64,000 nucleotides of DNA from a plasmid: the sequence record NZ_AP019725.1. One strand, written 5' to 3'. The stretch's first letter is position 1, and each line of letters starts with the position of its first letter. Shown here piece after piece: positions 811 through 63,584 of the stretch. The notes beneath the pieces are model-generated. The model was not told the origin of the DNA and made no database searches. It saw only the letters and a list, made by a program, of their open reading frames with translations. Position numbers and translations under genes: made by a program.

Positions 811-1866
811 ATGAAAATAAGGAAACCTTTTGTAATGGGGGGCATGTTGCTTGTGGCGGCATTGCTCTTTCTCTCCATGTTTATGGACATGTCTGCTCCT
901 CAGGAGATGGAGAGGCAGACAATATCCTTGCGTGCCGAGGCTGAAGATTTGTCCATCGATGATATGATCAATACGTCCGATAAGAGGAAAAGCCCTTCCA
1001 ATGATGTTGTAGCACCGGGCTTTGCCGGCAACGTCGGAGAATATGCTTCTTCTTCCGTTTCGACATATAGGGAAGATGATCCGGAGGCGATAGCCCGTAT
1101 TCAGGCGGCTATCCGTGAGAATGAGGAGAATCTGTCTGCCGGTTTGCGGAATATCGAGGCTGAAAGGAAAGGGCAGGCATTATCCGGCCTGCCTTCGGCC
1201 CGGAGTGATGAACATGACCGGGATGGCCGTTTCCAAAAGGATGGAATGGAAGGCTTGAAGAAGGACAGAAGGATAGAAATGGAAGAGCTTGAGAAGAGTG
1301 ATGCGGAGAATGATGAAGAGATGCCGGTGGCCGGGCCGGAAAAGGCTTCTCCATTTCACAGTATCCGCCTTACTTCTTCAAGTAACAGAAATGCGATTAA
1401 GGCATATGTACATTCGGAGCAGGTCGTAATGGCTGGCAGTACCCTTAAAATGCGTTTGGGAGAGGATGCCTATACGGATAATGGCGTGTTTATTCCGAAA
1501 AATTCACCGGTATATGGTATTGTAACCGGGATAGACGGCGAACGTGTGAATGTCAAGATTACCCATATCAATCTTTCAGGCAACATCCTGCCGTTCGCGA
1601 AGTCGGTATATTCCAAGGACGCCTTGCTGGGTATCTATGTGCCCGGTAATCCAAAATCCGAAATCTCCAAGGATGCTGCAGGCGGTGCGTTGGACGGGTT
1701 GCCCACAAGTGGAATATCCGGTGTTGATGCAGCTGCGCAGGTTGCTACTGTTGTGGCTTCAAGTGCTGCCAATGCTGGTAAACAGGCTTTATCCAAGAAT
1801 GTGAAAAAGATAAAGGTCACCATTAAGACCAATTATGAAGTTTATCTTCGTCCGGAAGAAAAATAG
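811..1866 (+). CDS. traM: Conjugative transposon protein TraM
   Basis: 351 aa with signal/TM, a charged middle and a Gly/Ala-rich C-terminus. Operon position is between traK and traN. Confidence 0.75.
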   Translation: MKIRKPFVMGGMLLVAALLFLSMFMDMSAPQEMERQTISLRAEAEDLSIDDMINTSDKRKSPSNDVVAPGFAGNVGEYASSSVSTYREDDPEAIARIQAAIRENEENLSAGLRNIEAERKGQALSGLPSARSDEHDRDGRFQKDGMEGLKKDRRIEMEELEKSDAENDEEMPVAGPEKASPFHSIRLTSSSNRNAIKAYVHSEQVVMAGSTLKMRLGEDAYTDNGVFIPKNSPVYGIVTGIDGERVNVKITHINLSGNILPFAKSVYSKDALLGIYVPGNPKSEISKDAAGGALDGLPTSGISGVDAAAQVATVVASSAANAGKQALSKNVKKIKVTIKTNYEVYLRPEEK

Positions 1867-1924
1867 GTGATATCTGATAAGGAAAGAAGGAATTAGTGTA
1901 TAACAATCAAAAATAAGTAAATCA

Positions 1925-3124
1925 ATGAAGTATGACATGAAGAATATATTGTTCTCCCTATTTGTGTTCCCCCTTGTCTGTCCGGTGGCGGCACAGACAG
2001 CCGACACAGATCGGCCAGTGGTTGACAATACCATTGCTTTGCGGGAGATCCAGTCTTCCTTTTTCTCTGTCTCTACACAAAAGACATTCCATCTCATTTT
2101 TCCGAATGAGGTGAAATACTTCTCTATTGGAGACGAGAATGTGGCCGGAGAAAAAATTGAGGCTTACCCGTGCGCTATCCGTCTGAAATCTGTTGTGCAG
2201 TCATTTGAAGGCCTTACCAATATGAGTGTCGTTACTGCCGATGGGCAGTATTACAGTTATAATGTCTCGTTTGTCCCGGAACTTCAGAAGACATATCTTC
2301 AGGTCGGCAGAAGCTATATGCAGCCCCCGGTTATTGCTGTCAACGACAATCAGCAGAGCCATCTCATCTTCCCCGACAAGATAATGTACGTTGACTACGG
2401 TACGGAGGATGTGGAAGTTGTCAAGGCTTCAGGCGTTGACAACATTATTGCTGTGCGGGCTTCAGCCCCTTTCTCTTCTGAGACGAACGTGTCTGTCGTC
2501 ACCCAATCAGGCAAGTTCTATACTTTTGATCTGAAATTTGCAGAGAAGCCGTCCCACCTTTCATATGTCGTTGATCCTACAGCCAAGACGGAGGAAAAGC
2601 GCATTGCCCTGCTTGATAATAAGGAACTTAACAGTGTGCAGCGTGAGAGTCTGCGTAAAAAGGTGAATGCATGTTTCTCATCCTTGAACAAATTGCATAA
2701 GGATTATGCCGGCATTCGCTTTTCCATCACCAATGTCATTATTGACAAGGATATTCTTTTCTTCAAATTCCGTATTGTCAATTACAGCAATATAGACTAT
2801 GTCCCTGATTTCGTGCGTTTCTATATCCAGGACTCCAAATTCCGGAAAAAGACGGCCATCCAACAGATCGAGCAGATCCCTTTGTTTTTCTTTGATTATC
2901 CGGAGCGGATCGGTGCGCATGAGACAAAAAACTTCACAGCCGCTCTGAACAAGTTTACAATTCCGGACAAGAAAAAACTGGTTATTGAGATGCAGGAGCG
3001 TGAAGGTGGCCGTCACTTCCTTTACAAGCTTGATAACAAGCCTATAATTTCGGCTGAGATACTTAATCCCCAAAGAAAATCAGGTACCGGGAAGATGGAT
3101 TTTCCGGTACGGAATAATCCTTGA
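1925..3124 (+). CDS. traN: Conjugative transposon protein TraN
   Basis: 399 aa secreted protein (MKNILFSLFVFPLVCPVAAQ) immediately after traM. It overlaps the next gene by 4 nt (ATGA). Confidence 0.7.
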   Translation: MKYDMKNILFSLFVFPLVCPVAAQTADTDRPVVDNTIALREIQSSFFSVSTQKTFHLIFPNEVKYFSIGDENVAGEKIEAYPCAIRLKSVVQSFEGLTNMSVVTADGQYYSYNVSFVPELQKTYLQVGRSYMQPPVIAVNDNQQSHLIFPDKIMYVDYGTEDVEVVKASGVDNIIAVRASAPFSSETNVSVVTQSGKFYTFDLKFAEKPSHLSYVVDPTAKTEEKRIALLDNKELNSVQRESLRKKVNACFSSLNKLHKDYAGIRFSITNVIIDKDILFFKFRIVNYSNIDYVPDFVRFYIQDSKFRKKTAIQQIEQIPLFFFDYPERIGAHETKNFTAALNKFTIPDKKKLVIEMQEREGGRHFLYKLDNKPIISAEILNPQRKSGTGKMDFPVRNNP

Positions 3125-3660
3125 TTTCACAGATGATAAAGCTGCTTGCCATATTGATGTTACTATCAGGTTCCGTTCCGGTATCCCTGCTCGAGGAACT
3201 GGCGATAAAGTCCAGGACCCTTGCCCCCATAGTTGAGGTGGCAGACCTTTATTTCTCTGCAGGGATTTTGGATTATCTGCCTTTACGCATACCCGTCGTT
3301 GGTGGAAGGGTATCTTCTCCCTATGGGTATCGTAAAGATCCCCTTACTGGAAAGGGGCGATTTCATGCCGGCCTTGACTATGCCTGTGAACTGGCTACTA
3401 CGGTTCATGCTTCAGCTGCTGGTGTTGTCTGTTTTGTCGGGCACCGCGGCGGGTATGGAAAATGTGTAGAGGTCAAGCACCGTTACGGTTTCAGCAGTAT
3501 TTATGCGCATTTATCGGGATATTACGTCAGAACTGGAGAGAGTATTCCTGCCGGTAAGATAATCGGTTTTGTCGGTACTACCGGCCGAAGTACGGGGTAT
3601 CATCTGCATTATGAGGTGAGAAAAGACAATCGTGTTATCAAACCACTATTTATATATTGA
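3121..3660 (+). CDS. M23 family metallopeptidase (peptidoglycan hydrolase) of the conjugation module
   Basis: Motifs YGYRKDPLTGKGRFHAGLDYA and GTTGRSTGYHLHYEV match the M23 HxxxD / HxH zinc site. The gene is translationally coupled to traN. Confidence 0.7.
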   Translation: MISQMIKLLAILMLLSGSVPVSLLEELAIKSRTLAPIVEVADLYFSAGILDYLPLRIPVVGGRVSSPYGYRKDPLTGKGRFHAGLDYACELATTVHASAAGVVCFVGHRGGYGKCVEVKHRYGFSSIYAHLSGYYVRTGESIPAGKIIGFVGTTGRSTGYHLHYEVRKDNRVIKPLFIY

Positions 3661-5366: not shown

Positions 5367-6041
5367 ATGGACACTGCCCTGTCGAGCCAGCCGATGGCAT
5401 TTAATCTGTTCTATCCCCTCATGTTATTGTTGAAGCAGGATCCAGCAGTGGTTACACTTGCCGTGAGGTCGGTCTTCAGGAACTTCCCGGTATTTGAGGT
5501 GACGGAAATCGGTCTGGAGTTTATTCCTACACCTATCGAGAATTACACGAATGACAAGTCTGCCATGGATGCGTATATTCGATTCGTGGACAACAAAGGA
5601 GGCAAGCATATCATCGCCATCGAGACTAAATATACGGATATGCTCGGAGTGAACGAGGCCAGCCGTTGTGAGGAGCAGAAGCAGATGCTCGTTGATACCG
5701 GTCTGTTCTGTGCGGACTTTGAGGAGCTGCTGATTGGAGGTAAAGTAAAACTTACGCAGATTTACAGAAACCTTTTGCTTACAGAGCGGTACAGGATAAA
5801 AGAAGGGCTGAAGGATTCGTATTCAGTAGTGCTTTCGCCGAAGGAGCATCCGTCAACCGAAGAGGAAATCAAGTCGGTTACGGAGTACCTGAAGCCGGAG
5901 TATGCCTATAAGCTGAGTGCTGTTACCTTGGAGGACTTTGTGGATGCGATGATACAGTACCTACCGGAGTATTATGCCCAGGTTTATGAGAGGTTCAGGG
6001 GGAGATACTTGGAGTTTGAGAAGATTGATTTGAATTTGTGA
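5367..6041 (+). CDS. PD-(D/E)XK nuclease superfamily protein (restriction-endonuclease-like)
   Basis: D...E-x-K core is visible in DAYIRFVDNKGGKHIIAIETKYTD. 224 aa. Confidence 0.5.
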   Translation: MDTALSSQPMAFNLFYPLMLLLKQDPAVVTLAVRSVFRNFPVFEVTEIGLEFIPTPIENYTNDKSAMDAYIRFVDNKGGKHIIAIETKYTDMLGVNEASRCEEQKQMLVDTGLFCADFEELLIGGKVKLTQIYRNLLLTERYRIKEGLKDSYSVVLSPKEHPSTEEEIKSVTEYLKPEYAYKLSAVTLEDFVDAMIQYLPEYYAQVYERFRGRYLEFEKIDLNL

Positions 6042-6055
6042 TAGAACCATACTAC

Positions 6056-6232: not shown

Positions 6233-7525
6233 ATGAAATACTTACATAGGGTGGCAGATAAAATGCTACAAGAACGACTTGAAACATTCGGTGCAGTTCT
6301 GATAGAAGGTCCAAAATGGACAGGAAAGACAACCACAGCAGAGCAACACGCCAACAGTTTCATTAAGTTGCAGGATCCTGATATGGCAGATGAATATCTT
6401 GCTACGGCGGCTACTAAACCATCACTTTTGCTGAAAGGTGAAAAGCCAAGACTAATAGATGAATGGCAGGATGCTCCCGTAATATGGGATGCGGTACGTA
6501 CAGCCGTTGATAATGCCAACGGATTACCAGGGCAATATATCCTCACAGGAAGCAATGCTGTGGATAAGACAAAAATAAAACATACAGGAACAGGAAGAAT
6601 AACTCGTATGAAGATGTATCCTATGAGTTTATGGGAATCTATGGAATCATCCGGTGAAGTCTCTATAAGAGAATTGTTTGATAATCCGGAATATGACATA
6701 GATGGCGCTTCAAGCAAACTTGATGTGCCGGAACTGATACGTGCGGCTTGCCGTGGCGGTTGGCCTGCTACCCTGCAGATGAGCCAGAAATCTTCTATGT
6801 TAGTAGCAAAAGATTATGTAAACAGCGTGTGTGAGAATGATATATCCAGGATAGATGGCAAACAACGTAATCCGAAAATAGCAAGGCAAATAATGAGGTC
6901 GTATGCACGAAATATCAGCACACTGGCAAAGAAAACCAATATACTTGCTGACATTACAGCATCCGGAGATATAACTATCTCTATGGATACTTATGACGAT
7001 TATGTGGAAGCACTGGAAAAATTGTATGTCATTCAGGACATTGATGCCTGGTGTCCGGCCATAAGAAGCAAAACAGCAATGCGCAGTGCGCCCAAACGCT
7101 GTTTCACCGACCCCTCTATTGCCGTGGCAGCAATGAACATTGGAGCGGAAGCATTGGAAATACAACTCAAGACATTCGGGTTTATTTTTGAACAGATGTG
7201 TGTACGCGACCTTAAGGCCTATACCGCAGATTTCAACAGCCGTATATCATACTATCGTGACCGCTATGGTTTGGAGTCTGACCTCGTTTTACATCTGGAA
7301 GATGAAAGATATGCTTTGATTGAATGCAAAATGGGTAGTAGAGAAATAGAAGAGGGAGCAAAACATCTATTGGAAATCAAACGTCTTATCCAAGAATATA
7401 ACAAAACGGAAAAGCAAGTGCCATTACGGGAGCCGGATCTTTTAATAGTCTTGACAGGCGGTAAAATGGCCTATACACGAGCAGATGGAGTTAAAGTTAT
7501 TCCACTTGCTTGCCTAAAAGACTGA
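6233..7525 (+). CDS. AAA-family ATPase with DUF4143-type C-terminal region
   Basis: Walker A is GPKWTGKTT. The 430-aa architecture is typical of the Bacteroides ATP-binding / DUF4143 family. Confidence 0.75.
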   Translation: MKYLHRVADKMLQERLETFGAVLIEGPKWTGKTTTAEQHANSFIKLQDPDMADEYLATAATKPSLLLKGEKPRLIDEWQDAPVIWDAVRTAVDNANGLPGQYILTGSNAVDKTKIKHTGTGRITRMKMYPMSLWESMESSGEVSIRELFDNPEYDIDGASSKLDVPELIRAACRGGWPATLQMSQKSSMLVAKDYVNSVCENDISRIDGKQRNPKIARQIMRSYARNISTLAKKTNILADITASGDITISMDTYDDYVEALEKLYVIQDIDAWCPAIRSKTAMRSAPKRCFTDPSIAVAAMNIGAEALEIQLKTFGFIFEQMCVRDLKAYTADFNSRISYYRDRYGLESDLVLHLEDERYALIECKMGSREIEEGAKHLLEIKRLIQEYNKTEKQVPLREPDLLIVLTGGKMAYTRADGVKVIPLACLKD

Positions 7526-7677: not shown

Positions 7678-8259
7678 TTACATTGAATATAAATGAAAGA
7701 ATTTCTTTATGTGGCGGAGGAATGGGGTAGGTTCCTTGTCGATAGAGTAAGGGTTTCCCCATTTGGAGATTCCGGACACTGATTCCGCGTATGTGATGTG
7801 CAGGCGTATCTTTGCCCTGGTCATGGCCACATAGAAAAGTCTTGCGGATTCTCTGATTTCCTCAGGAGTCTTCTTGTCAAAGAACGGATAGACACCATCA
7901 GTTGCCTCGAAGATAATCACGTTCTCAAATTCAAGGCCTTTTGCCTTGTGGACTGTAGAGACGAACACCTTTTCTGTTATACATGAGCTGTCACACAGGT
8001 CGGCTTCACGGTAGGTAGTTATATCGAGAAGGTGGGCTGAAAGCTGCTCCTTCAGACTCGGAGTCTTCTCCGGAGAGATTACATCATTACGGAGGAAGCT
8101 GAAGATGTACTGCATCTTCGGGTTTGCTTCTATCCATCCCTTCTGTATGAATGTGTCGTACAGATGCTCCAGCCCGTCAACGAGCAGAGGATATTCAGAC
8201 GATCTCTGGTAGAGACGGCTGAGTGTGCCGTGATAGATGTCAGCATGTTCTTGGTTTAT
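7678..8259 (-). pseudogene. UvrD/Rep-like helicase, C-terminal fragment only (about 190 aa)
   Basis: Helicase motif VI region STVHKAKGLEFENVIIFEA...LFYVAMTRAK. The frame stays open upstream to 8259 but has no N-terminal ATPase half. The intact family is 600 aa or more. Confidence 0.6.
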
Positions 8260-9872: not shown

Positions 9873-10325
9873 CTACTTCTTTTTGAAGGCTTCCCTGAAG
9901 CACTCCATCACCATGCAGCCGCAATACTTTTCAATGGTGCTCAATCTGATACATTTTCCGTCAATGGTGGTTCCTGTCGTGATATGGTTTTCATACAGTG
10001 ACTTCTCCGGATCTGCGTCTGCAATCTGTCTTAGCCAGGCATTGGTATGTGAAGCCAGCCGCGCCAGCTTCTTGTATTTCAAGACCTCTTTTCTGACGGT
10101 TTCCTTATCATCCTCACCGGTCGGATAATAAACAGCCTGAATGGATGCCCAATCATAAAACCTATAGCCTTTCCTTTTCTTTCTCTCTGCGATTATACCT
10201 ATCACTCCTTCCTGACGATTGATAAAAAGCCTTCTGCGCTTACCGTTGATTTTTACGTACAGTGAAGATGGGTTGTTGGGGTTACGGAGATATGCTTCTG
10301 CCGGATGTATCGTTGTTGTGTTCAT
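9873..10325 (-). CDS. Hypothetical protein, 150 aa (basic, mobile-element associated)
   Basis: Complete ORF. It is preceded by palindromic operator copy (a) at 10353-10377. Confidence 0.45.
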   Translation of the reverse strand: MNTTTIHPAEAYLRNPNNPSSLYVKINGKRRRLFINRQEGVIGIIAERKKRKGYRFYDWASIQAVYYPTGEDDKETVRKEVLKYKKLARLASHTNAWLRQIADADPEKSLYENHITTGTTIDGKCIRLSTIEKYCGCMVMECFREAFKKK

Positions 10326-10352: not shown

Positions 10353-10377
10353 TTTTGATTATGTTACATAATCAGAT
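10353..10377. promoter_or_regulatory. Palindromic operator-like site, copy (a): TTTTGATTATGT-T-ACATAATCAGAT
   Basis: Perfect 17-bp palindrome GATTATGT T ACATAATC at 10357-10373, with its centre 40 bp upstream of the 10325 start codon. Confidence 0.55.
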
Positions 10378-10905: not shown

Positions 10906-10923
10906 TTGATTGTTTTGCTACTT

Positions 10924-10970
10924 TTTCTTGAAAAAGTAGTCACAACCTTTTTTTGAAGGTTGTGCTACTC
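10924..10970. terminator. Two adjacent perfect hairpins (ctacttttt-cttg-aaaaagtag and cacaacctt-ttttttg-aaggttgtg)
   Basis: Both 9-bp stems were read directly. They sit between the radC-like stop (10978) and the next minus-strand start (10905). Confidence 0.4.
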
Positions 10971-11586: not shown

Positions 11587-12424
11587 ATCCGTATGCTTTA
11601 GAGGGTTAAAAACTTGAATTATTCTTCAGCTAGATTTAGACCTTTTTTTTGAAAACCTTTGTCTTGGTTTGGTCTTTTGTCCGCTGACTTTTTTTTAGAT
11701 TGAGAATCATTCCCCATCTGAGTTTGAGCCTTTTTTTTACGGCTTCTTTAGGTACGGGCGAGTGGAATTAGAAAAGTTTTGAACGAAAAAAATGTTGGGG
11801 CAGTCGCAGACAACATCGTTATTTTTTTCAGGGCAAAGGCTGCAGGCCGGAACTCTTTCATTTCCACCACGACCATATACCTTTGCCGTATAAAAAGAAA
11901 GGCTCTTAGATGGGGGAACACCGATAAATGAGGAAGCGGACAGCAGAAAAGACCAATGAAAGACAATAGAAAAACGAGTTATACCGATTATACTCTGGGT
12001 AGATAAGGAACTTTAGCGACATACCTTAAAGGGGTGGTGGGAGTAAGAGAAGATTACTTGGGATGAAGTACAAAGTTTACAGAAACCTAAATTATTAATG
12101 ATAGGTATATTTTCTTTCTGAGTAACTTATGCGATATGATAGAATAGATTGATTATAAAAAATTTTCGCATTAATAATTTGAATTCTACTAGGATTGTTA
12201 GAAATCATTTTTATGACTGCGAAATTATTGTTGAATTGGTTTTGTATCCTGTCCATTAGGATGTAATTTTTTAAGCACAATATTATATAGTAATTACTGT
12301 TCTCATTTACATTATCTCTGGTTTTTAAATACCATGCATATAAAAACACCATGTTTTTTTAATATTTCTCCCATCATCCATATCAATACTTTATTTTTTA
12401 TTTGCATCAGAAAATCAAATACTA

Positions 12425-14987: not shown

Positions 14988-16196
14988 ATGTTACTGAAGA
15001 ATGTATTAACAATAGTGGGAGGTATAGCGTTGTTTGCCTCCTGTGTAAACCAGCCTTCTGCTACAGTGTCTACTGATGATAGTGCTTATGACCAGCGTAA
15101 AGCGGATTCTTTGGGAATACCCAAAGGAAATAAATTAAGTGCTGCGATGAAACGTGCCATGGAATGGCCGCAGCGTGACAATTCGTGGTTCTTTGAATAT
15201 AAGATGATGCCTTTAAAAGGTGATTTGGCTTATGAGGAAGGTATAGTTAGACGCGACCCAAGTGCTATGATTAAGGTTGGAGACAAGTACTATGTATGGT
15301 ATTCAAAAAGTTATGGTGAAACTCAGGGATTTGCCGGGGATGTTGAAAATGAAAAGGTTTTTCCATGGGACAGATGCGATATATGGTATGCCACAAGTAA
15401 GGATGGTATTACCTGGAAAGAAGAAGGTGTGGCTGTTAAAAGAGGTGAAAAAGGAGCATACGATGACAGATCGGTTTTCACTCCTGAAGTTATGCAGTGG
15501 AATGGTAAGTATTATCTTTGTTACCAGACTGTTAAATCGCCATACACAGTTAGAGTTAAGGAAAATGTTGCTATGGCATGGGCTGATTCTCCTGATGGTC
15601 CGTGGGAAAAGACTGATAAGCCGGTTCTTACCCCATCCGACAATGGCGTTTGGGAAGGAGAAGAGGATAATAGATTTAAAGTAAAAGCTAAAGGTGACTT
15701 TGACAGTCATAAAGTGCATGATCCATGTATCATACCATACAATGGTAAATTCTATCTTTATTATAAAGGTGAAAGAATGGGTGAGGAAATTACCTGGGGA
15801 GGTAGAGAAATCAAACATGGTGTAGCTATAGCCGATAATCCACTTGGTCCTTATACCAAATCAGAGTATAATCCTATAAGCAATAGTGGACACGAGATAT
15901 GTGTATGGCCTTATAAAGGAGGTATAGCATCTTTGATTACAACAGACGGACCGGAAAAGAATACCTTGCAGTGGTCGCCAGACGGCATAAACTTCGAGAT
16001 AATGTCCGTTATACCAGGAGCACCTCATGCTATTGGTCTGAACAGAAGTGCTGATAATGATAAGGAACCTACTGAAATATTGCGTTGGGGATTGACTCAT
16101 CAATACATTACCTATAATTATCAATGCATTATGCGTTTTGAAACATGGACTAAACAGACTCATACTGCAATTGGTGAATCAACAAAGCGAAAATAA
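14988..16196 (+). CDS. GH117-like (GH43-superfamily five-bladed beta-propeller) hydrolase, candidate alpha-1,3-(3,6-anhydro)-L-galactosidase
   Basis: Lipobox LFASC. Propeller-blade motifs are [36 protein letters not shown] and [10 protein letters not shown]. It is a paralog of 54154..55386. Confidence 0.55.
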
Positions 16197-57505: not shown

Positions 57506-57957
57506 TGAAGAACACAGGTCTATGAAACTGAAATTTTACTTTATCCTGATAATCTCTGTTACTATATCAATACATGCTTTTGCCTCCTTAAATAGAGTAA
57601 AGAGTTCAAAGTATATTGAAATTAAAAAATATGAAGTAGTTGATATAGTTTTCAAATCTACAAAATCCTCTTGTCCTTTTGATGTAGAGTTCAGCGTACT
57701 GTTTACCTCAAGGAATCGAATAATACTATTCAAAGTCCTAAATTACAGCACTTTAATATCTTTGGAAAAATCCCCGAACCACTGAATCAGCCATATGCCA
57801 AATTCACCAATTTTCGATAGATTCTCGTTAATCATCCTTTGACTTTACAAAGGTAAGTGTTCGGTTCTATTCCTCCAAATATTTATATAATTATTTAGGG
57901 GTAGCTACAAGCTATTTTATAAAGTTTATCTTTTGATTATTAATGTTTTAAGAGATA

Positions 57958-58352
57958 TTATTCAAATGCCAATACTTTGTTTCTTTCCAATATTTCTATA
58001 ATATCCTGTTCCTTATACAGAATCTTTCCTCCTATTCTGTAATAGGGCAATTTACCATTCATTCTATATTCAATGAGTGTTCTTTTTGTTATTTTGAGAG
58101 CTTTTGATAATTCTTGTTCTGTAATATAGCGGTTCCCGTCTAATATAGGTCTGTAGATTAAGGAGTTTGCATCCAACATTCAGAAAGCCATCTCTTCCAG
58201 ACCTTTGTAATCTGTCCAGTAAAATATAGGCGAAAAAACTCTTTGGTAAGATGGTTGTCAGGGAGTTTTCCAACAGGAGTTACACCGTTTTCTTCAATAA
58301 AGACATCCACATCAATATTATATTTTTCAACTAGTTCAAATTTATTTTCCAT
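57958..58352 (-). CDS. Excisionase/MerR-like HTH protein, apparently split by a frameshift (N-part 58158..58352, HTH part 57958..58179)
   Basis: The C-terminal ORF has an HTH (ITEQELSKALKITKRTLIEYRMNGKLPYYRIGGKILY). The N-terminal 64-aa ORF (MENKFELVEKYNIDVDVF...) is in another frame, with T6/A6 homopolymers at the junction. Confidence 0.45.
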
Positions 58353-58390
58353 ATAAGCTAATTTGTGTGGTTTGGGACAAAAATAGTAAA

Positions 58391-58415
58391 TTTTGATTAT
58401 GTCACAAAATCAAAA
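58391..58415. promoter_or_regulatory. Palindromic operator-like site, copy (b): TTTTGATTATGT-C-ACAAAATCAAAA
   Basis: The 12-bp arms match with 1 mismatch. The centre is 51 bp upstream of the 58352 start codon. Confidence 0.55.
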
Positions 58416-59935: not shown

Positions 59936-60160
59936 AATTCTGTATTTACTTTTATTTTCCCGAATGTTTTCTGTTCATCACGTACCCGGCTAAGTTCCCG
60001 ATGTGCTTTTTCCTTATACTCCTGAAGAACTTTGATTTCGTTACGAAATAAAAATTCAACAAGGATATCATTGTTTTTATACAAACTATACAAATGTAGA
60101 TATTAAAATTGACTTATAGCTGTAATTATGAAATAAATAAGCTACATTCAGCACCATATT

Positions 60161-61432
60161 TTACTTCACGAGAATGACATCATCGAGGTTGGTGGTGTAC
60201 TGCTTGCTGATGTGTTCGCATTTGAGGTGCCATGACTTATCTGTAGTGCCCTGGACAGCTACCTTTATGGTGTTGTGGCCATTCTTTCGGTTGATAGCAT
60301 CTATGGCGGCGGCCAGGCGTGATTGCTTGTCACGGTCAATGGTGTCAAAAAGGTTGGTTTGGATGGCAGAATCAGGAACTATGTTCCAGACAATGACACC
60401 GGCTTTTTTGTACTGATAACCGCCCTCTTTGCGGAAATCCATGCGGAGTGCCCGAACTGCAGTGCTTACAAGTTCCTGAAGGTCGTTGGTCGGTACCTGC
60501 AGGTGGATGGTGCGGTTGATGCAGTACTGCGGAAGATCCATACGGAAACGGCTGGTATAGGCGAATACTGTTATCTCTGTGCAGCAGCTGTGCTGCATAC
60601 GGAGCTTACGGACACATTCGGAAGAAAAGTTGGCGACAGCTTCCTCTAAGCTGGAGAGTTCGGACAGACCGGAGTCAGGGAAACTTCGGCTGGTACAGAT
60701 ACTCTTCTTCTGTGGCAGTTCCTCGACATCGATGCAGGATTCACCACGAAGCTCCTTCCAAGTACGTACACCGGTAATTGTAAGTTATTTTCGCACAAAA
60801 CTCTCGCTTTTCTGAGTGAAATCCCAGGCGGTATTTAAACCGTAATAGTGCAGCTTATCCAAGCTTCGATGGCCGATACCCCAAACATCGCCAATTTCGA
60901 AGCCCTGCAGCGCCTTGATGCGCTTTTCCTCAGAATCAATCATGCATACACCCTGATATCCCTTGTACTTCTTTCCGTAACGGCTTGCCACCTTCGCCAG
61001 AGTCTTTGTCGGAGCAATACCCATCGTAACCGGGATGCCGGTACCCTTTCCGATGGTCTTCACAATCCTGTGACCGTAGGAAACCAACTTCTCCCCTTCT
61101 CCGAAGCCGGAGAGATCCAGGAACGCTTCATCAATTGAGTACTGGGTCAGTTCGGGCGTGAACTCGGACAGCAGCATCATTACCCGGCGACTCATGTCAC
61201 CGTACAGGTTGTAGTTTGAGCTGAAGACAGCCACATTGTTTGCCTCAAGGACTTCACGAATCTGGTAGAGAGGTGTACCCATCTTGATACCCATTGCTTT
61301 AACTTCGTTGCTTCGGGCCACGACACAGCCGTCATTGTTACTCAGAACAACGACAGGTTTGTCACGGAGCAGCGGATTGAACACGCGCTCGCATGAACAG
61401 TAGAAGTTATTGCAATCGACAAGGGCTATCAT
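60161..61432 (-). pseudogene. umuC: Y-family translesion polymerase UmuC with a single in-frame TAA (60785-60787)
   Basis: The N-terminal ORF ([18 protein letters not shown]...SIDEAFLDL) and C-terminal ORF (DUF4113-like, ...QYKKAGVIVWNI...) are in the same frame. Hand translation of 60599-60784 gives LTITGVRTWKELRGESCIDVEELPQKKSICTSRSF..., a conserved UmuC segment. One stop codon is the only break. Confidence 0.8.
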
Positions 61433-61878
61433 CTTCCTTTTCTAAGCTGTCTCTTTATGTTATAAGTAAGAACACCCCATATCAGGTAGTTGTTCTCTTC
61501 AGTAATCTTTATGGGTGAATATTCCTCGTTGGCCGGTACGAGCCAGATACATTTCTCCTTATCGTCAAAGCGCACAGTCTTCAGCGTGAACTCTCCATCG
61601 ATGAAAGCCACAACGATGTCACCGTCCTGAGGCTCCAAGGCCTTGTCTATAACCAACAGGTCGCCATCATCAATACCACAGTCCTTCATTGAATCTCCGG
61701 AAGCACGGGCATAGAATGTTGTGGCCGGATGACGTATGAGTTCCCGGTTCAGGTCTATGCTGTCAGTCATGTAGTCCTGGGCCGGTGAAGGAAATCCAGC
61801 TCTCACACCTTGATCTGCAAACGGCAATGACAGTTCACTGCTCAGGTCAGCAGAATACATGGTAAGTTTTATGTTCAT
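61429..61878 (-). CDS. umuD: UmuD (LexA-like S24 peptidase accessory subunit)
   Basis: S24 motifs [21 protein letters not shown] (Ser) and ...KTV (Lys). Overlaps umuC by ATGA. Confidence 0.85.
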
Positions 61879-62159
61879 CCCAGTAGACCTTTCTCCAGCA
61901 TTTCCTTACGAAGAAGTTCTTTCTCAACCTCAGTCATATCAGCCAGTTTCAATCTGTGCGGATTCTGTATCTGATAAGCCTTGACATCATCAATCACATT
62001 CTGGAAGTCATACAGAAATTCGCGAGAAGCGCCATGCCTTCTGTAGATTTCAATGGCTGCTTCCAATACTTCTACTGTGCAGCTGTCATCGCCCTGAAAT
62101 ACGATAGCCGGTATATCATTTACGATGCATTTTCTTAATAAAGCAAGTTGATCTTTCAT
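61875..62159 (-). CDS. Hypothetical 94-aa protein, first gene of the umuDC operon
   Basis: Overlaps the umuD start by ATGA. Palindromic operator copy (c) lies immediately 5-prime of its start codon. Confidence 0.45.
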   Translation of the reverse strand: MKDQLALLRKCIVNDIPAIVFQGDDSCTVEVLEAAIEIYRRHGASREFLYDFQNVIDDVKAYQIQNPHRLKLADMTEVEKELLRKEMLEKGLLG

Positions 62160-62160
62160 A

Positions 62161-62185
62161 TTTTGATTATGTTACAAATTCAAAA
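62161..62185. promoter_or_regulatory. Palindromic operator-like site, copy (c): TTTTGATTATGT-T-ACAAATTCAAAA
   Basis: The 12-bp arms match with 2 mismatches. On the coding strand the site ends 1 nt before the ATG of the 94-aa ORF. Confidence 0.55.
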
Positions 62186-62286
62186 ATAACATAAAATAAT
62201 TTAGTTGTGTAATTTTATCCTAATCATACACAATCTACAGATAGTTGTGATACAGATAAATGGATAGTTGTATAAAACCGTCCATA

Positions 62287-62630: not shown

Positions 62631-63584
62631 TTAGGAAGCATCAGATTTCAATAATGACAATTTTAAAGAGCCATCACACAACAAATCATAATATAAATAA
62701 AGCAACGGTTTTAAATAAGACCGGATAGCCGGAACCTGCAAATATATTTTCTTATTTACCATAACACACGAAAGCTTTTCATAACCGTTTGGTATATGCT
62801 TATTAAGCTGAGAGATAAAATTAATAATCTTTTGAGGAGTAGGCCAGTTCAAGAACTGAATGGTCACATTCATATCATCATAACTAACAGATAATTTATA
62901 AGAAAGATCTTGTGAGGTAACGAGAGAAGAAATAAGAAGCAGAGCCTCTAAATAATTGCTACCAGCCATTACTATTATATCTCTATCACAAGATATTTTT
63001 GACAAAACATAATCAATCAGCAAAGTTGAAGATGAAGAAAGCAAATATCCTGTTGAGTCTGGATCACCGGATTTATCCAGACCAAAGAACAAGACAGGAT
63101 CCCAGCAGATATATACAGAGCCAGACTTATCTGTGCGTATTGAAGCCAGGCACTGATTATCGTCAAACAAAAGTCTTGTATTTCCCTTAACTGGATCAAA
63201 TTGAAAAAGATTGCGATAGGCATTCAGTCCAGATTTATCCTGATGTATAGATTTGAGCAAATAGCCATGCAGTCCAAATACATGTTTTAGTTTCACATAT
63301 GTTTCTTTTGCCGAAACATCAAACAAATAATCTATTATTTGTTGTCTGCTGCAACGAACAGGCAGGGAAAACTCTTCGCAATCTTCCAATTCTTCTAAAT
63401 TAACCTTCAGTAATTCAGCCAGCATAATAACCGAAATATCCGTAAAACCGTATAATTCCATACAGCAAATTACGTTATTTTCATTACAATAAATGAGATA
63501 ACCCCTATTGTTGATTCTATAAAGGCGAAAAAAATCACCATACTCTACTGGAGTATATTCTTTGAAAAGCGACTGGAAATTCAT
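62631..63584 (-). CDS. Hypothetical protein, 317 aa
   Basis: Long ORF with no recognisable motif. Same strand as, and downstream of, the 64-aa ORF. Confidence 0.45.
   Translation of the reverse strand: MNFQSLFKEYTPVEYGDFFRLYRINNRGYLIYCNENNVICCMELYGFTDISVIMLAELLKVNLEELEDCEEFSLPVRCSRQQIIDYLFDVSAKETYVKLKHVFGLHGYLLKSIHQDKSGLNAYRNLFQFDPVKGNTRLLFDDNQCLASIRTDKSGSVYICWDPVLFFGLDKSGDPDSTGYLLSSSSTLLIDYVLSKISCDRDIIVMAGSNYLEALLLISSLVTSQDLSYKLSVSYDDMNVTIQFLNWPTPQKIINFISQLNKHIPNGYEKLSCVMVNKKIYLQVPAIRSYLKPLLYLYYDLLCDGSLKLSLLKSDAS

Follow-up and report, generated by a model that had tools for sequence, protein, structure and literature searches.

A recurrent 25-bp palindrome of gut Bacteroides mobile elements as a candidate operator upstream of umuDC and other element operons

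We analysed a 64,000-nucleotide stretch of plasmid DNA (sequence record NZ_AP019725.1; the window), which consists of a Bacteroidales conjugative element and an inserted porphyran-utilisation locus. A 25-bp palindrome with the consensus TTTTGAwTnTGT-n-ACAnAwTCAAAA occurs at positions 10353, 58391 and 62161 (sites a, b and c). Once the porphyran insert is disregarded, these three sites share one co-directional backbone block. A gene family that accompanies the motif is referred to below as PAP, for palindrome-associated protein, a label coined in the present analysis. The relevant features of the window are the following:

6028-6052, no strand assigned: degenerate half-site (ATTTGAATTTGT...) at the stop of a PDDEXK_13 nuclease gene
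9873-10325, minus strand: 150-aa gene 3' of site a, 208-210 aa long in relatives, no family match
10353-10377, no strand assigned: site a, reads TTTTGATTATGTTACATAATCAGAT and overlaps the DUF6956 stop codon by 1 nt
57958-58179, minus strand: HTH_17 ("Xis-like") gene, 3' of the 64-aa ORF, belongs to the inserted cargo
58158-58352, minus strand: truncated PAP gene, a 64-aa ORF of which the first 57 aa are the N-terminus of a 190-aa family
58378-58385, minus strand: predicted -7 box TATTTTTG for PAP transcription, separated from site b by 5 nt on its downstream side and from a TTTG within the palindrome by 19 nt
58391-58415, no strand assigned: site b, reads TTTTGATTATGTCACAAAATCAAAA and covers the -33 element and spacer of the predicted PAP-gene promoter
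60030-60054, no strand assigned: weak variant palindrome, minus strand TTTTTATTTCGT-A-ACGAAATCAAAG with a CGT.ACG core, between umuC and a cyclase-like gene
60161-61432, minus strand: umuC, with one in-frame stop after codon 215
61429-61878, minus strand: umuD, 149 aa, a Peptidase_S24 domain only, without a DNA-binding domain
61875-62159, minus strand: 94-aa gene, first in the umuDC unit, with an invariant MKDQ start
62161-62185, no strand assigned: site c, reads TTTTGATTATGTTACAAATTCAAAA and precedes the 94-aa gene, first of 94aa-umuD-umuC
62181-62188, minus strand: candidate -7 box TATTTTTG, partly within the distal arm of site c

A search of the window with up to three mismatches returned exactly sites a, b and c, and none of 100 dinucleotide-preserving shuffles returned any. 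This result confirms the three near-identical palindromes of the original prediction; the best remaining matches in the window carry six mismatches. The single arm mismatch reported for site b and the two for site c are also correct, but the perfect palindrome within site a, given as 17 bp, spans 19 bp (TGATTATGT-T-ACATAATCA, 10356-10374). The plus-strand arm TTTTGATTATGT is the same in all three copies. The gap to the next minus-strand ATG measures 27 nt at site a (150-aa gene), 38 nt at site b and 1 nt at site c (94-aa gene), so that site c does abut a start codon as described. The claim that each copy lies 5' of a particular minus-strand gene holds for sites a and c. Site b is followed first by the 64-aa ORF and not by the Xis-like HTH_17 gene, which sits in the inserted cargo outside the unit that site b would control, and with this the proposed link to excision is lost. 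Nor did a further half-site proposed at 57931 stand out: 12-mer matches with up to two mismatches number 30 against 20 expected, a modest excess, and this one lies inside the cargo with no counterpart in relatives. The variant palindrome at 60030-60054 is a possible low-affinity site. It is kept in L003 and L043-45, and its CGT.ACG core recurs in the upstream site of 104-aa PAP genes. The half-site at 6028-6052 is possibly a relic; locus L141 carries a full site at the equivalent position, 3' of a PDDEXK_13 homologue.

The 25-bp palindrome is a real, non-random signal common to many gut-Bacteroides mobile elements. Relatives of the window element keep it at five intergenic positional classes (a-e), across lineages with diverged flanks. 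The position of site c is kept in L001-L004, L052, L053, L062 and L065 and lost in L054-type relatives; site a is kept in L004 (position 17211) and L050 and is degenerate in L065. In all lineages, site e lies 2-3 nt past the traB stop of a traA-traB operon with a ParA-like TraA; in L054 it is flanked by convergent genes. Sites d and e are not 5' of any start; each is bounded by a stop codon on one side and a conserved terminator on the other. The window element has no traA or traB beside the site-bearing block. Among the related elements, changes fall mainly at the degenerate positions of the motif. We found 22 sites in 88.6 kb of these elements but none in 587 kb of other Bacteroidales elements with homologues of the 94-aa protein. 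In this element DNA the motif is therefore not ubiquitous upstream of unrelated genes; it is ubiquity that the original prediction had named as counting against it.

Further afield, a metagenome scan yielded more than 117 exact instances of the motif in about 20 unrelated mobile-element contexts, and a scan of viral contigs gave no matches. Among non-redundant sites, 74 of 79 are intergenic. The neighbouring genes mostly encode toxin-antitoxin, nuclease, mobilisation, Rep or PAP proteins, with repair genes in the minority; umuDC is the only SOS-type target seen, and in L084 the motif again lies upstream of a umuD-umuC pair, a distant one with 43% identity. The motif sequence is unchanged in DNA that ranges from 29% to 48% GC. 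Tandem arrays are absent except for three tandem sites in L132.

Bacteroides promoters follow the consensus -33 TTTG / -7 TAnnTTTG. A TAnnTTTG box lies 5-7 nt after site b in every lineage, including those with diverged flanks, and 5-9 nt past the site 5' of PAP genes in three distant subfamilies. At an offset of exactly +5 from a site we counted 8 such boxes where about 0.08 are expected. On this consensus, site b is predicted to overlap the PAP core promoter. The candidate box at site c occurs in the same register in 4 of 7 lineages, and if it is real, transcription would start within the palindrome. We consider it weak because, taken over all sites, this register turns up 19 times where chance predicts about 16; on the same counts, a -7 box in the distal arm was dropped as a general feature of the motif. 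Prediction from the consensus gave no convincing conserved promoter at sites a and c.

The organisation of the motif bears on what kind of signal it is. Each half-site reads T-T-y-T-G-A-w-T-n-T-G-T, with T4, G5, A6 and G11 invariant among 28 distinct sites. In the same set, the mirrored variable positions do not covary: pairs match at 15 sites for positions 7/19 (15.4 expected from the marginal frequencies) and at 9 sites for 9/17 (7.6 expected). Site c folds at -1.9 kcal/mol, no better than shuffled sequences (z = 0.46), sites a and b reach only about -6 kcal/mol, and an Rfam search with the palindrome matched no family. Because the mirrored variable positions do not covary and the hairpins are weak or absent, we read the palindrome as a dyad protein site and not as a hairpin. 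Inverted half-sites with independently varying positions, a preference for non-coding DNA and a conserved placement relative to genes are what one looks for in an operator. The palindrome thus resembles an operator to which a protein would bind, and it connects several operons, 94aa-umuD-umuC included. A role as an RNA or transferred single-stranded DNA hairpin (a terminator, a processing or stability element, a translational occluder, or a single-stranded promoter or priming site) would account for the symmetry, for the several copies that abut stop or start codons, for the terminators that adjoin sites d and e, and for the cluster B arm TTTTGATTTTGT, which directly follows a 12-bp stem and could act as its U-tract. 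Beyond the missing covariation, the weak folds and the lack of an Rfam family, on which we reject the hairpin models, transcription of the PAP gene is predicted to start downstream of site b. The TTTG within the motif also resembles the Bacteroides -33 element, so a duplicated promoter module or general promoter element had to be considered. Since 587 kb of other Bacteroidales element DNA contain no full site, the motif is not a general promoter part. Only at PAP promoters does a -7 box stand at a set distance from the site, and the tendency of changes to fall at degenerate positions speaks against the hairpin and promoter explanations, which together we regard as very improbable.

The original prediction had interpreted the palindrome as an SOS-type box for a self-cleaving LexA-like, S24 or CI-like repressor, under which umuDC and other element functions would be induced by DNA damage. 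The operator part of this proposal stands, as the motif is dyad-symmetric, serves several operons and also lies 5' of the L084 umuDC. The occurrence upstream of two independent umuDC operons could favour SOS control as well, and error-prone polymerase operons are usually tightly repressed, as PMC8460599 describes for rumAB of R391 under SetR, LexA and CroS. Several observations point the other way. Non-canonical LexA proteins of Bacteroidetes recognise GGA-N5-TCC or CTAA-N5-TTAG, and both groups are absent from Bacteroidales (PMC8565304). Our motif matches neither of these boxes nor the diverged TTAC-N5-GTAA, and identity with a LexA box of that study was rejected. Neither the window nor the related loci examined yielded an S24 protein that has a DNA-binding domain: the only nearby S24 protein is the 149-aa UmuD, and the family that travels with the motif is the unannotated PAP, in which no S24 domain was detected. 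Finally, most motif instances flank non-repair genes. The SOS, S24 or CI-like part of the prediction is very unlikely.

PAP emerged from an all-against-all clustering of ORFs as the most widely shared family, present in five contexts where the next families reach three. In 11 of 14 PAP-bearing loci a site lies within 120 bp of the PAP gene; 103 of 117 metagenome motif loci have no PAP within the few kilobases of available flank. The gene is bracketed by the palindrome, with one copy in its predicted core promoter and one at or just after its stop codon. Loci that were retrieved by the PAP protein instead of the motif (L062, L065, L185-187) show the same bracket. Remote members of 104 aa, 75+109 aa, 156 aa and 228 aa behave alike, and a 77-aa member (L132, in 48% GC DNA) has its three tandem sites upstream. 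PAP proteins are small and basic (77-230 aa). They are built from four parts: an arm that is basic and disordered ([KR]GGxRxGAGRK), the conserved segment T.VMRVP, a pair of helices and, in most members, a QLxLF tail at the C-terminus. The most conserved part, GGxRxGxG..K....T...R.P, is present in all members; its constancy parallels that of the motif.

In 51 PAP-family proteins a QLxLF peptide (QLSLF, QLKLF, QLNLF and similar) is located no more than 15 aa from the C-terminus, and the 104-aa subfamily ends exactly on it. Members from L116/L119 and L132 have no such tail, yet still accompany the motif. QLxLF is the consensus for binding to the β sliding clamp (PMC4549789). With the terminal QLxLF or QL[SD]LF peptide by which clamp binders are recognised, PAP is a putative clamp binder.

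The fold of PAP matched nothing in the collections searched: Pfam (29 members, RHH families included, E-values up to 1), PHROGs and NCBIfam, the PDB by sequence and by profile, and the PDB by structure with Foldseek. AlphaFold models were mediocre (pLDDT 65 and 73 for two models); in the latter, an extended segment leads into a helix, which a loop of 12 residues connects to a second helix of 37 residues. Comparison by hhalign with Arc, Mnt, CopG, omega and ParG gave a probability of 0.3% against these five ribbon-helix-helix proteins. With no match to the RHH families of Pfam, this low score and a different predicted fold, we find no support for PAP as a ribbon-helix-helix repressor. The site-PAP-site arrangement was also considered as a tiny transposable cassette and judged unlikely, for its ends show no target duplications and solo sites are positionally conserved. 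A literature search for a described Bacteroides element regulator like PAP returned nothing relevant.

The copy of PAP in the window is broken. Its basic arm and its C-terminal half with QLxLF are gone at the cargo junction near 58180, which falls within the gene; the other junction lies at 11990 (...|TAATCGGTATAAC). Both junctions are away from any palindrome, and a role of the palindrome as a site-specific recombination site for the cargo was rejected. A local HMM search found no intact PAP in the window, in L043 or in L046-51. The earlier statement that no repressor gene is evident in the window can be amended in that the 64-aa ORF after site b is a truncated remnant of the best candidate. 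That a premature stop in umuC accompanies the truncated PAP is no more than suggestive, since L052, a relative with an intact PAP, has a damaged umuC too.

We favour, with moderate confidence, the interpretation that the palindromes form an operator set for an element-encoded, autoregulated repressor, with PAP acting as a symmetric dimer. We infer from sequence comparison that PAP binds the palindrome and that binding represses. A dimer of this small protein would occupy the dyad, and as one motif copy lies in the predicted core promoter of the PAP gene, bound PAP would turn off expression of its own gene. The single copies that separate closely spaced accessory operons (at 94aa-umuDC, the RadC block, the 150/208-aa block and after traB) would constitute a small regulon, most likely repressed by PAP. 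In this, PAP would resemble the global repressors encoded by plasmid backbones, under which establishment genes fall silent after the element is installed in its host. As the porphyran cargo has cut the PAP gene of the window after codon 57, sites a, b and c would be orphan operators unless another element supplies PAP in trans. Several observations sit less easily with a PAP operator set. No DNA-binding fold can be recognised in PAP. Sites d and e do not precede starts, so that simple promoter occlusion fails there, and a convincing conserved promoter is missing at sites a and c. The majority of metagenome motif loci (103/117) have no nearby PAP, the window element retains intact sites despite its truncated PAP, and the lineage also encodes a Crp-like protein, DUF3408, DUF2582 and HU.

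These latter proteins raise the question as to whether the palindrome is bound by another factor, be it a host protein, the Crp-like cNMP-binding regulator, DUF3408/TraB, DUF2582 or an HU-like protein, with PAP merely the gene most tightly under its control. The scarcity of PAP near most motif loci and the constancy of the motif from 29% to 48% GC, which a conserved host factor would allow, are consistent with this idea. The Crp-like gene is kept on the traA side in L002, L004 and L054-61, the C-terminus of DUF3408 is ribbon-helix-helix-like by sequence and its gene abuts site e, and HU-family genes are found immediately upstream of site c and within clusters A and B. However, no alternative family recurs across independent contexts as PAP does, and the site bracket around PAP genes holds in remote lineages. 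The winged-helix protein DUF2582 is weakened as a candidate by its absence from the usual place between umuC and PAP in L053 and L065, both of which keep all sites. Sites of HU and IHF are not dyads. CRP/FNR-type sites read TGTGA-N6-TCACA and TTGAT-N4-ATCAA, and the half-site spacing of the palindrome differs from theirs; nor is the Crp-like protein seen across contexts. Together, these factors other than PAP, the Crp-like regulator among them, are unlikely binders. A second doubt concerns the role of binding. PAP could bind the palindrome mainly for a non-transcriptional purpose, as a centromere-like or replisome landmark that works with the ParA-like TraA in partition or relaxosome positioning, or that recruits or senses clamps at replication or after transfer. 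In all lineages site e adjoins the traA-traB operon; in L109 a PAP-like gene is followed by a site and then by a ParA-type ATPase gene; in L187 a Rep_3 initiator gene lies with PAP and three sites; and sites d and e are not close to promoters. All of this would fit such a function. So would the QLxLF tails, since RK2 TrfA binds the clamp through QLSLF (PMC4549789, PMC8034659). On the other hand, most centromeres and iteron origins are arrays, whereas the sites are single and dispersed, with L132 the one exception. A site in the promoter of PAP itself is a classic autoregulatory position, the window element has no traA or traB beside this block, and the L116/L119 and L132 members lack QLxLF yet keep the motif. 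We judge a predominantly non-transcriptional role improbable. The two roles are not exclusive, as omega of pSM19035 and KorB of RK2 perform both regulation and partition.

A bolder and still doubtful extension of the PAP operator set is that PAP couples about five fixed element sites to the sliding clamp through its C-terminal peptide, which would make it a new kind of mobile-element regulator. In one version, passage of the replisome or complementary-strand synthesis after transfer would set or relieve repression of establishment genes such as umuDC, in a bacterial parallel to the late genes of phage T4, whose transcription depends on the clamp. In another version, the sites would recruit clamps for replication of the element, as RK2 TrfA does.

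Conjugative elements of gut Bacteroidales shuttle polysaccharide-utilisation loci (here for porphyran), resistance genes and mutagenic polymerases between species. To our knowledge, the regulation of such elements outside CTnDOT is almost unknown, and we know of no SOS regulator in Bacteroidales. If the PAP operator set is real, it supplies a defined cis-element, for which a position-weight matrix is ready for use; a regulon common to many unrelated Bacteroidota mobile elements would gain a candidate trans-factor, and the silencing of element-borne umuDC could be approached directly. The putative clamp-binding tail makes a replication-coupled switch open to simple experiments. Insertion of the cargo destroyed the candidate regulator in a widespread porphyran element, the operons of which may be deregulated.

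Omega of pSM19035 and KorA and KorB of RK2 are global backbone repressors of conjugative plasmids. The proposed PAP system resembles them in relying on one small element-encoded protein, putatively DNA-binding, and several short operators distributed over the backbone, that of its own promoter included. The putative targets are likewise accessory, establishment and partition genes, and there is a link to a ParA-type ATPase. Some PAP-family sites are far from promoters, as in class III of KorB, and an unstructured basic N-terminal tail is also found in omega and ParG. In contrast to these systems, PAP shows no similarity to RHH or ParB proteins that we could detect, its proposed operator is a single 25-bp dyad instead of the heptad arrays of omega or the 13-bp OB site, it carries a C-terminal QLxLF tail, and it is hosted by integrative elements and small Rep_3 replicons of Bacteroidota. 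The SXT/R391 elements offer a second parallel, since they carry a umuDC-type operon (rumAB, polV) under self-encoded repressors (PMC8460599). SetR is described there as CI-like, with an S24 domain and responsive to RecA, whereas the elements considered here have no S24 repressor and no CI/Cro member; the operators are unrelated. Within the same phylum, the Bacteroidetes LexA regulon also places a palindromic box 5' of umuDC, and its non-canonical LexA is thought to descend from a mobile-element repressor (PMC8565304). By comparison, the palindrome described here is a 25-bp dyad with mostly non-repair targets on mobile elements. Acinetobacter is another LexA-less lineage that controls umuDC with an unusual repressor, UmuDAb/DdrR, and an atypical box; UmuDAb is homologous to UmuD but carries a DNA-binding domain in addition (PMC11332147), in contrast to the UmuD of the window with its S24 domain only. 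Finally, RK2 TrfA (QLSLF) and IS transposases (C-terminal QLxLF) are mobile-element DNA binders that carry a clamp peptide (PMC8034659, PMC4549789), which in the transposases, as in PAP, can stand at the extreme C-terminus. TrfA is an initiator that acts on iterons and transposases act at element ends, whereas the sites of the PAP family lie in promoters and in the gaps between genes.

The three palindromes of the original prediction were confirmed at their positions, and they are the only matches in the window to the idealized 25-mer at up to three mismatches. The next best matches carry 6 mismatches, and the same search on 100 shuffled sequences returned zero matches. All three copies share the arm TTTTGATTATGT on the plus strand, equivalent to an invariant ACATAATCAAAAT on the minus strand, which carries the genes. 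The perfect palindrome within copy a, described as 17 bp long, actually spans 19 bp, and a proposed half-site at 57931 found no support. The copies are placed as follows:

Site c, 62161-62185, ends 1 nt ahead of the ATG of the 94-aa gene.
Site b, 58391-58415, 38 nt ahead of a 64-aa ORF.
Site a, 10353-10377, overlaps the DUF6956 stop codon, 27 nt ahead of the 150-aa gene.

The gene following site b is this 64-aa ORF rather than the predicted HTH_17 gene. The MKDQ start of the 94-aa gene does not vary between homologues.

The window, a Bacteroidales conjugative element, encodes TraM, a TraN-like DUF4138 protein and an M23 peptidase (811-3660), together with RadC, DUF6956, an HU-family protein, UmuD and UmuC. 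Parts of this backbone are separated by a large polysaccharide-utilization locus, which encodes GH2 enzymes, sulfatases and a hybrid two-component regulator; in other samples, this element's gene table also lists a porphyranase domain. Since the cargo-less relatives L002 (Bacteroides mediterraneensis) and L004 (a Phocaeicola MAG) connect 58180 with 11990 by about 900 bp, 11991-58179 is an insertion. It comprises the porphyran-type locus and the HTH_17 gene. One co-directional block downstream of the mobilization genes contains sites c, b and a, in the order HU, site c, 94aa-umuD-umuC, ..., DUF2582, site b, 190-aa gene, site d, ..., RadC, 92-aa gene, DUF6956, site a, 150/208-aa gene. The right cargo junction (...agagta/TAATCGGTATAAC) is base-exact in the different cargos of two relatives, L052 (9704) and L059 (18843), and the terminal ~55 bp of cargo are similar between the window and L052. 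At the same place, L004 contains three copies of a ~TTGTACAAAAGTAnCnCTAAGG repeat (15190-15604). This region looks like a cargo-capture hot spot. Of a 915-aa UvrD-like helicase that also has an RNase_T exonuclease domain, the window retains only the last 145 residues (7678-8115, minus strand); among the loci recorded for this helicase (L046-L049), L046 has an IS21-type insertion at the gene.

Among 42 loci fetched with the 94-aa protein as bait, only the four closest (L001-L004) contain the motif. Because the remaining 38 (587 kb) contain no site at up to three mismatches to a generalized consensus, we can rule out a general promoter element. Relatives of intermediate divergence (L052, L053, L054-61, L062-67) display five positionally conserved classes of site, with 22 sites across 88.6 kb in six related loci:

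Class e, 2-3 nt past the stop codon of traB (DUF3408).
Class c, ahead of the 94-aa gene; absent from the L054 type.
Class b, ahead of the 190-aa gene.
Class d, 10-13 nt past the stop codon of the 190-aa gene.
Class a, at the DUF6956 stop codon, ahead of the 150/208-aa gene.

A terminator hairpin comes after site d and another after site e, and their stems carry compensatory changes between lineages. The palindrome shows no such pattern. Among 28 distinct sites, the half-site reads T-T-y-T-G-A-w-T-n-T-G-T with T4, G5, A6 and G11 invariant, and mirrored variable positions are complementary as often as marginal frequencies predict (pair 7/19, 15 observed vs 15.4 expected; 9/17, 9 vs 7.6; 10/16, 21 vs 20.4). 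No stable fold is predicted for site c (-1.9 kcal/mol, z = 0.46), sites a and b reach about -6 kcal/mol, and the palindrome matches no Rfam family. With no excess complementarity, weak or absent folds and no Rfam match, the pattern is not that of a hairpin; it reads as the signature of a symmetric protein that recognizes two half-sites.

An exact-pattern scan for TTTTGANTNTGTNACANANTCAAAA returned at least 117 stretches from metagenome contigs and none from viral contigs. Among the matches listed, 24 of the 80 loci examined match any protein of the window's element family; the others form about 20 context clusters. These contexts include toxin-antitoxin pairs (YefM/YoeB, HipA), Fic and RhuM; DUF5712 with a coupling protein; UvrD-like helicase-exonucleases; PDDEXK_13 and PLD nucleases; a Rep_3 initiator and a ParA ATPase; and a single distant umuD-umuC operon in 29% GC DNA (L084). 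Again among the matches listed, 74 of 79 non-redundant sites are intergenic, 27 lie within 15 nt of a gene end (in nine of these the stop codon is the TGA of TTTTGA) and eight lie within 5 nt of a gene start. The most frequent of the other contexts is cluster A (20 metagenome loci). There, as represented by L097, the motif forms the centre of an imperfect inverted repeat of ~105 bp (6818-6922; TTAAGT...GTAATC / GATTAC...ACTTAA), with a DUF4007 gene on one side and an HTH_XRE-HipA pair on the other.

All-against-all ORF clustering of the matches listed identified the C-terminal half of the 190-aa protein as the most widespread family, present in five contexts. A local HMM detected this palindrome-associated protein (PAP) in 14 of 117 listed loci, and in 11 of these 14 a site lies within 120 bp of the PAP gene. 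The gene is usually bracketed by one site upstream and another at or past its stop codon. This bracket extends to remote members, and to loci selected by protein bait instead of motif (L062, L065, L185-187). The remote members are:

L088 and L086, 104 aa.
L092, 75+109 aa.
L119, split into 81- and 76-aa ORFs.
L109, 228 aa, followed by ParA.
L132, 77 aa, 48% GC, with three tandem sites, adjoining a tRNA-like end.

A 156-aa homologue of the L119 protein (in L116) has no site within 2.7 kb. The tandem copies in L132 (894-975) lie upstream of the PAP-like gene and adjoin sequence like a tRNA gene 3' end (GGGATTTGAACCC), a hint that an integrated element ends here.

PAP has a basic, disordered N-terminal arm, two helices and an invariant core (GG.R.G.G.K ... 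T...R.P). The family is small (122 representatives among 1.84 billion proteins), without a match in Pfam, PHROGs, NCBIfam, PDB or a fold search, and without profile similarity to canonical ribbon-helix-helix proteins. Most full-length members carry [DN]KRQLxLF at the C-terminus. QLxLF is the beta-clamp-binding consensus, with QLSLF as its full form (PMC4549789), and RK2 TrfA binds the clamp via QLSLF (PMC8034659). The 64-aa ORF past site b matches the PAP N-terminus over 57 residues and then diverges at the cargo junction, so that the part with the conserved core and clamp motif is missing; no intact PAP was found in the window or within ~20 kb to each side.

The canonical Bacteroides -7 box is TAnnTTTG. 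A predicted box of this type lies 5-7 nt past site b in every lineage, including the differently flanked L053 and L065, and a TTTG within the palindrome lies 19 nt upstream of it. Among 85 non-redundant contexts from the matches listed, a box at offset +5 was observed eight times against ~0.08 expected. At offsets +4 to +9, all identifiable cases but one (L074) precede the 190-aa gene or a distant homologue of it. A candidate -7 box instead overlaps the distal arm at site c of the window, as it does in the 104-aa subfamily; this register is not enriched overall in the same 85 listed contexts.

The best-supported reading is that the palindromes form an operator set for an autoregulated, element-encoded candidate repressor, PAP. 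Site b would occlude the PAP promoter, and sites c and a lie at the head of the umuDC and 150-aa units. The analysis establishes the cis-element and the association of the PAP gene with it; we infer that PAP binds these sites, represses and interacts with the clamp. An SOS-type box controlling umuDC and other units, as originally predicted, has no support beyond the umuDC neighbourhood. The palindrome differs from published Bacteroidetes LexA motifs, both LexA groups are missing from Bacteroidales (PMC8565304), and the UmuD encoded here contains the S24 domain alone. A role linked to partition or replication is still viable because sites d and e lie between stop codons and terminators, where promoter occlusion does not account for them, because some sites neighbour ParA genes and because PAP carries the clamp motif.

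Several other features of these elements deserve mention. The umuC gene of the window (60161-61432, minus strand) contains one in-frame stop after codon 215 (..ESFVRK*LTITG..). L043, a contig found in at least 20 samples, has the same split in its gene table; umuC of relatives is intact (423 aa). The split umuC and the truncated candidate repressor PAP occur in the same element. Since L052 combines a damaged umuC with an intact PAP, no causal link between the two lesions is shown. The window also contains a perfect palindrome, CTACTTTTTC-TT-GAAAAAGTAG, between the RadC and 92-aa genes (10918-10939) and another, AACAAATAAT-CT-ATTATTTGTT, within a 317-aa gene (63322-63343). Both keep their stems in relatives (L004 16649; L002 8817) with inverted 2-nt centres (AA; AG), as if the centres had been flipped. 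In loci of the Phocaeicola plebeius / coprocola type (L028, L030; 11736, 14806), the equivalent accessory region holds a recurrent palindrome of its own, ACGGTTTTGC-NN-GCAAAACCGT, which may be a distinct operator that serves another regulator. Between traA and mobA (L002 6776, L004 6756) lies a perfect 20-bp palindrome, GTTTTTGTACGTACAAAAAC, that probably belongs to the origin of transfer.

Small ImpC/DinI-type genes precede plasmid umuDC homologues. The 94-aa gene (61875-62159, minus strand), which precedes umuD wherever relatives retain umuDC, recalls these genes by its position. Its product is one of a small group of related Bacteroidales proteins (57 clusters; MKDQ..PA.VFQGDD.C is invariant) without a family match. 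In L002 (5194-5652, minus strand) and homologues, DUF3408 (TraB) is encoded past the ParA-like TraA, and its C-terminal segment IRISKETHAKLKRLANVSDVSMHVLATNILEIAFEKY reads like a ribbon-helix-helix. With site e abutting its stop codon, this TraA/DUF3408 pair resembles a type Ib partition module or a VirC1/VirC2-like module.
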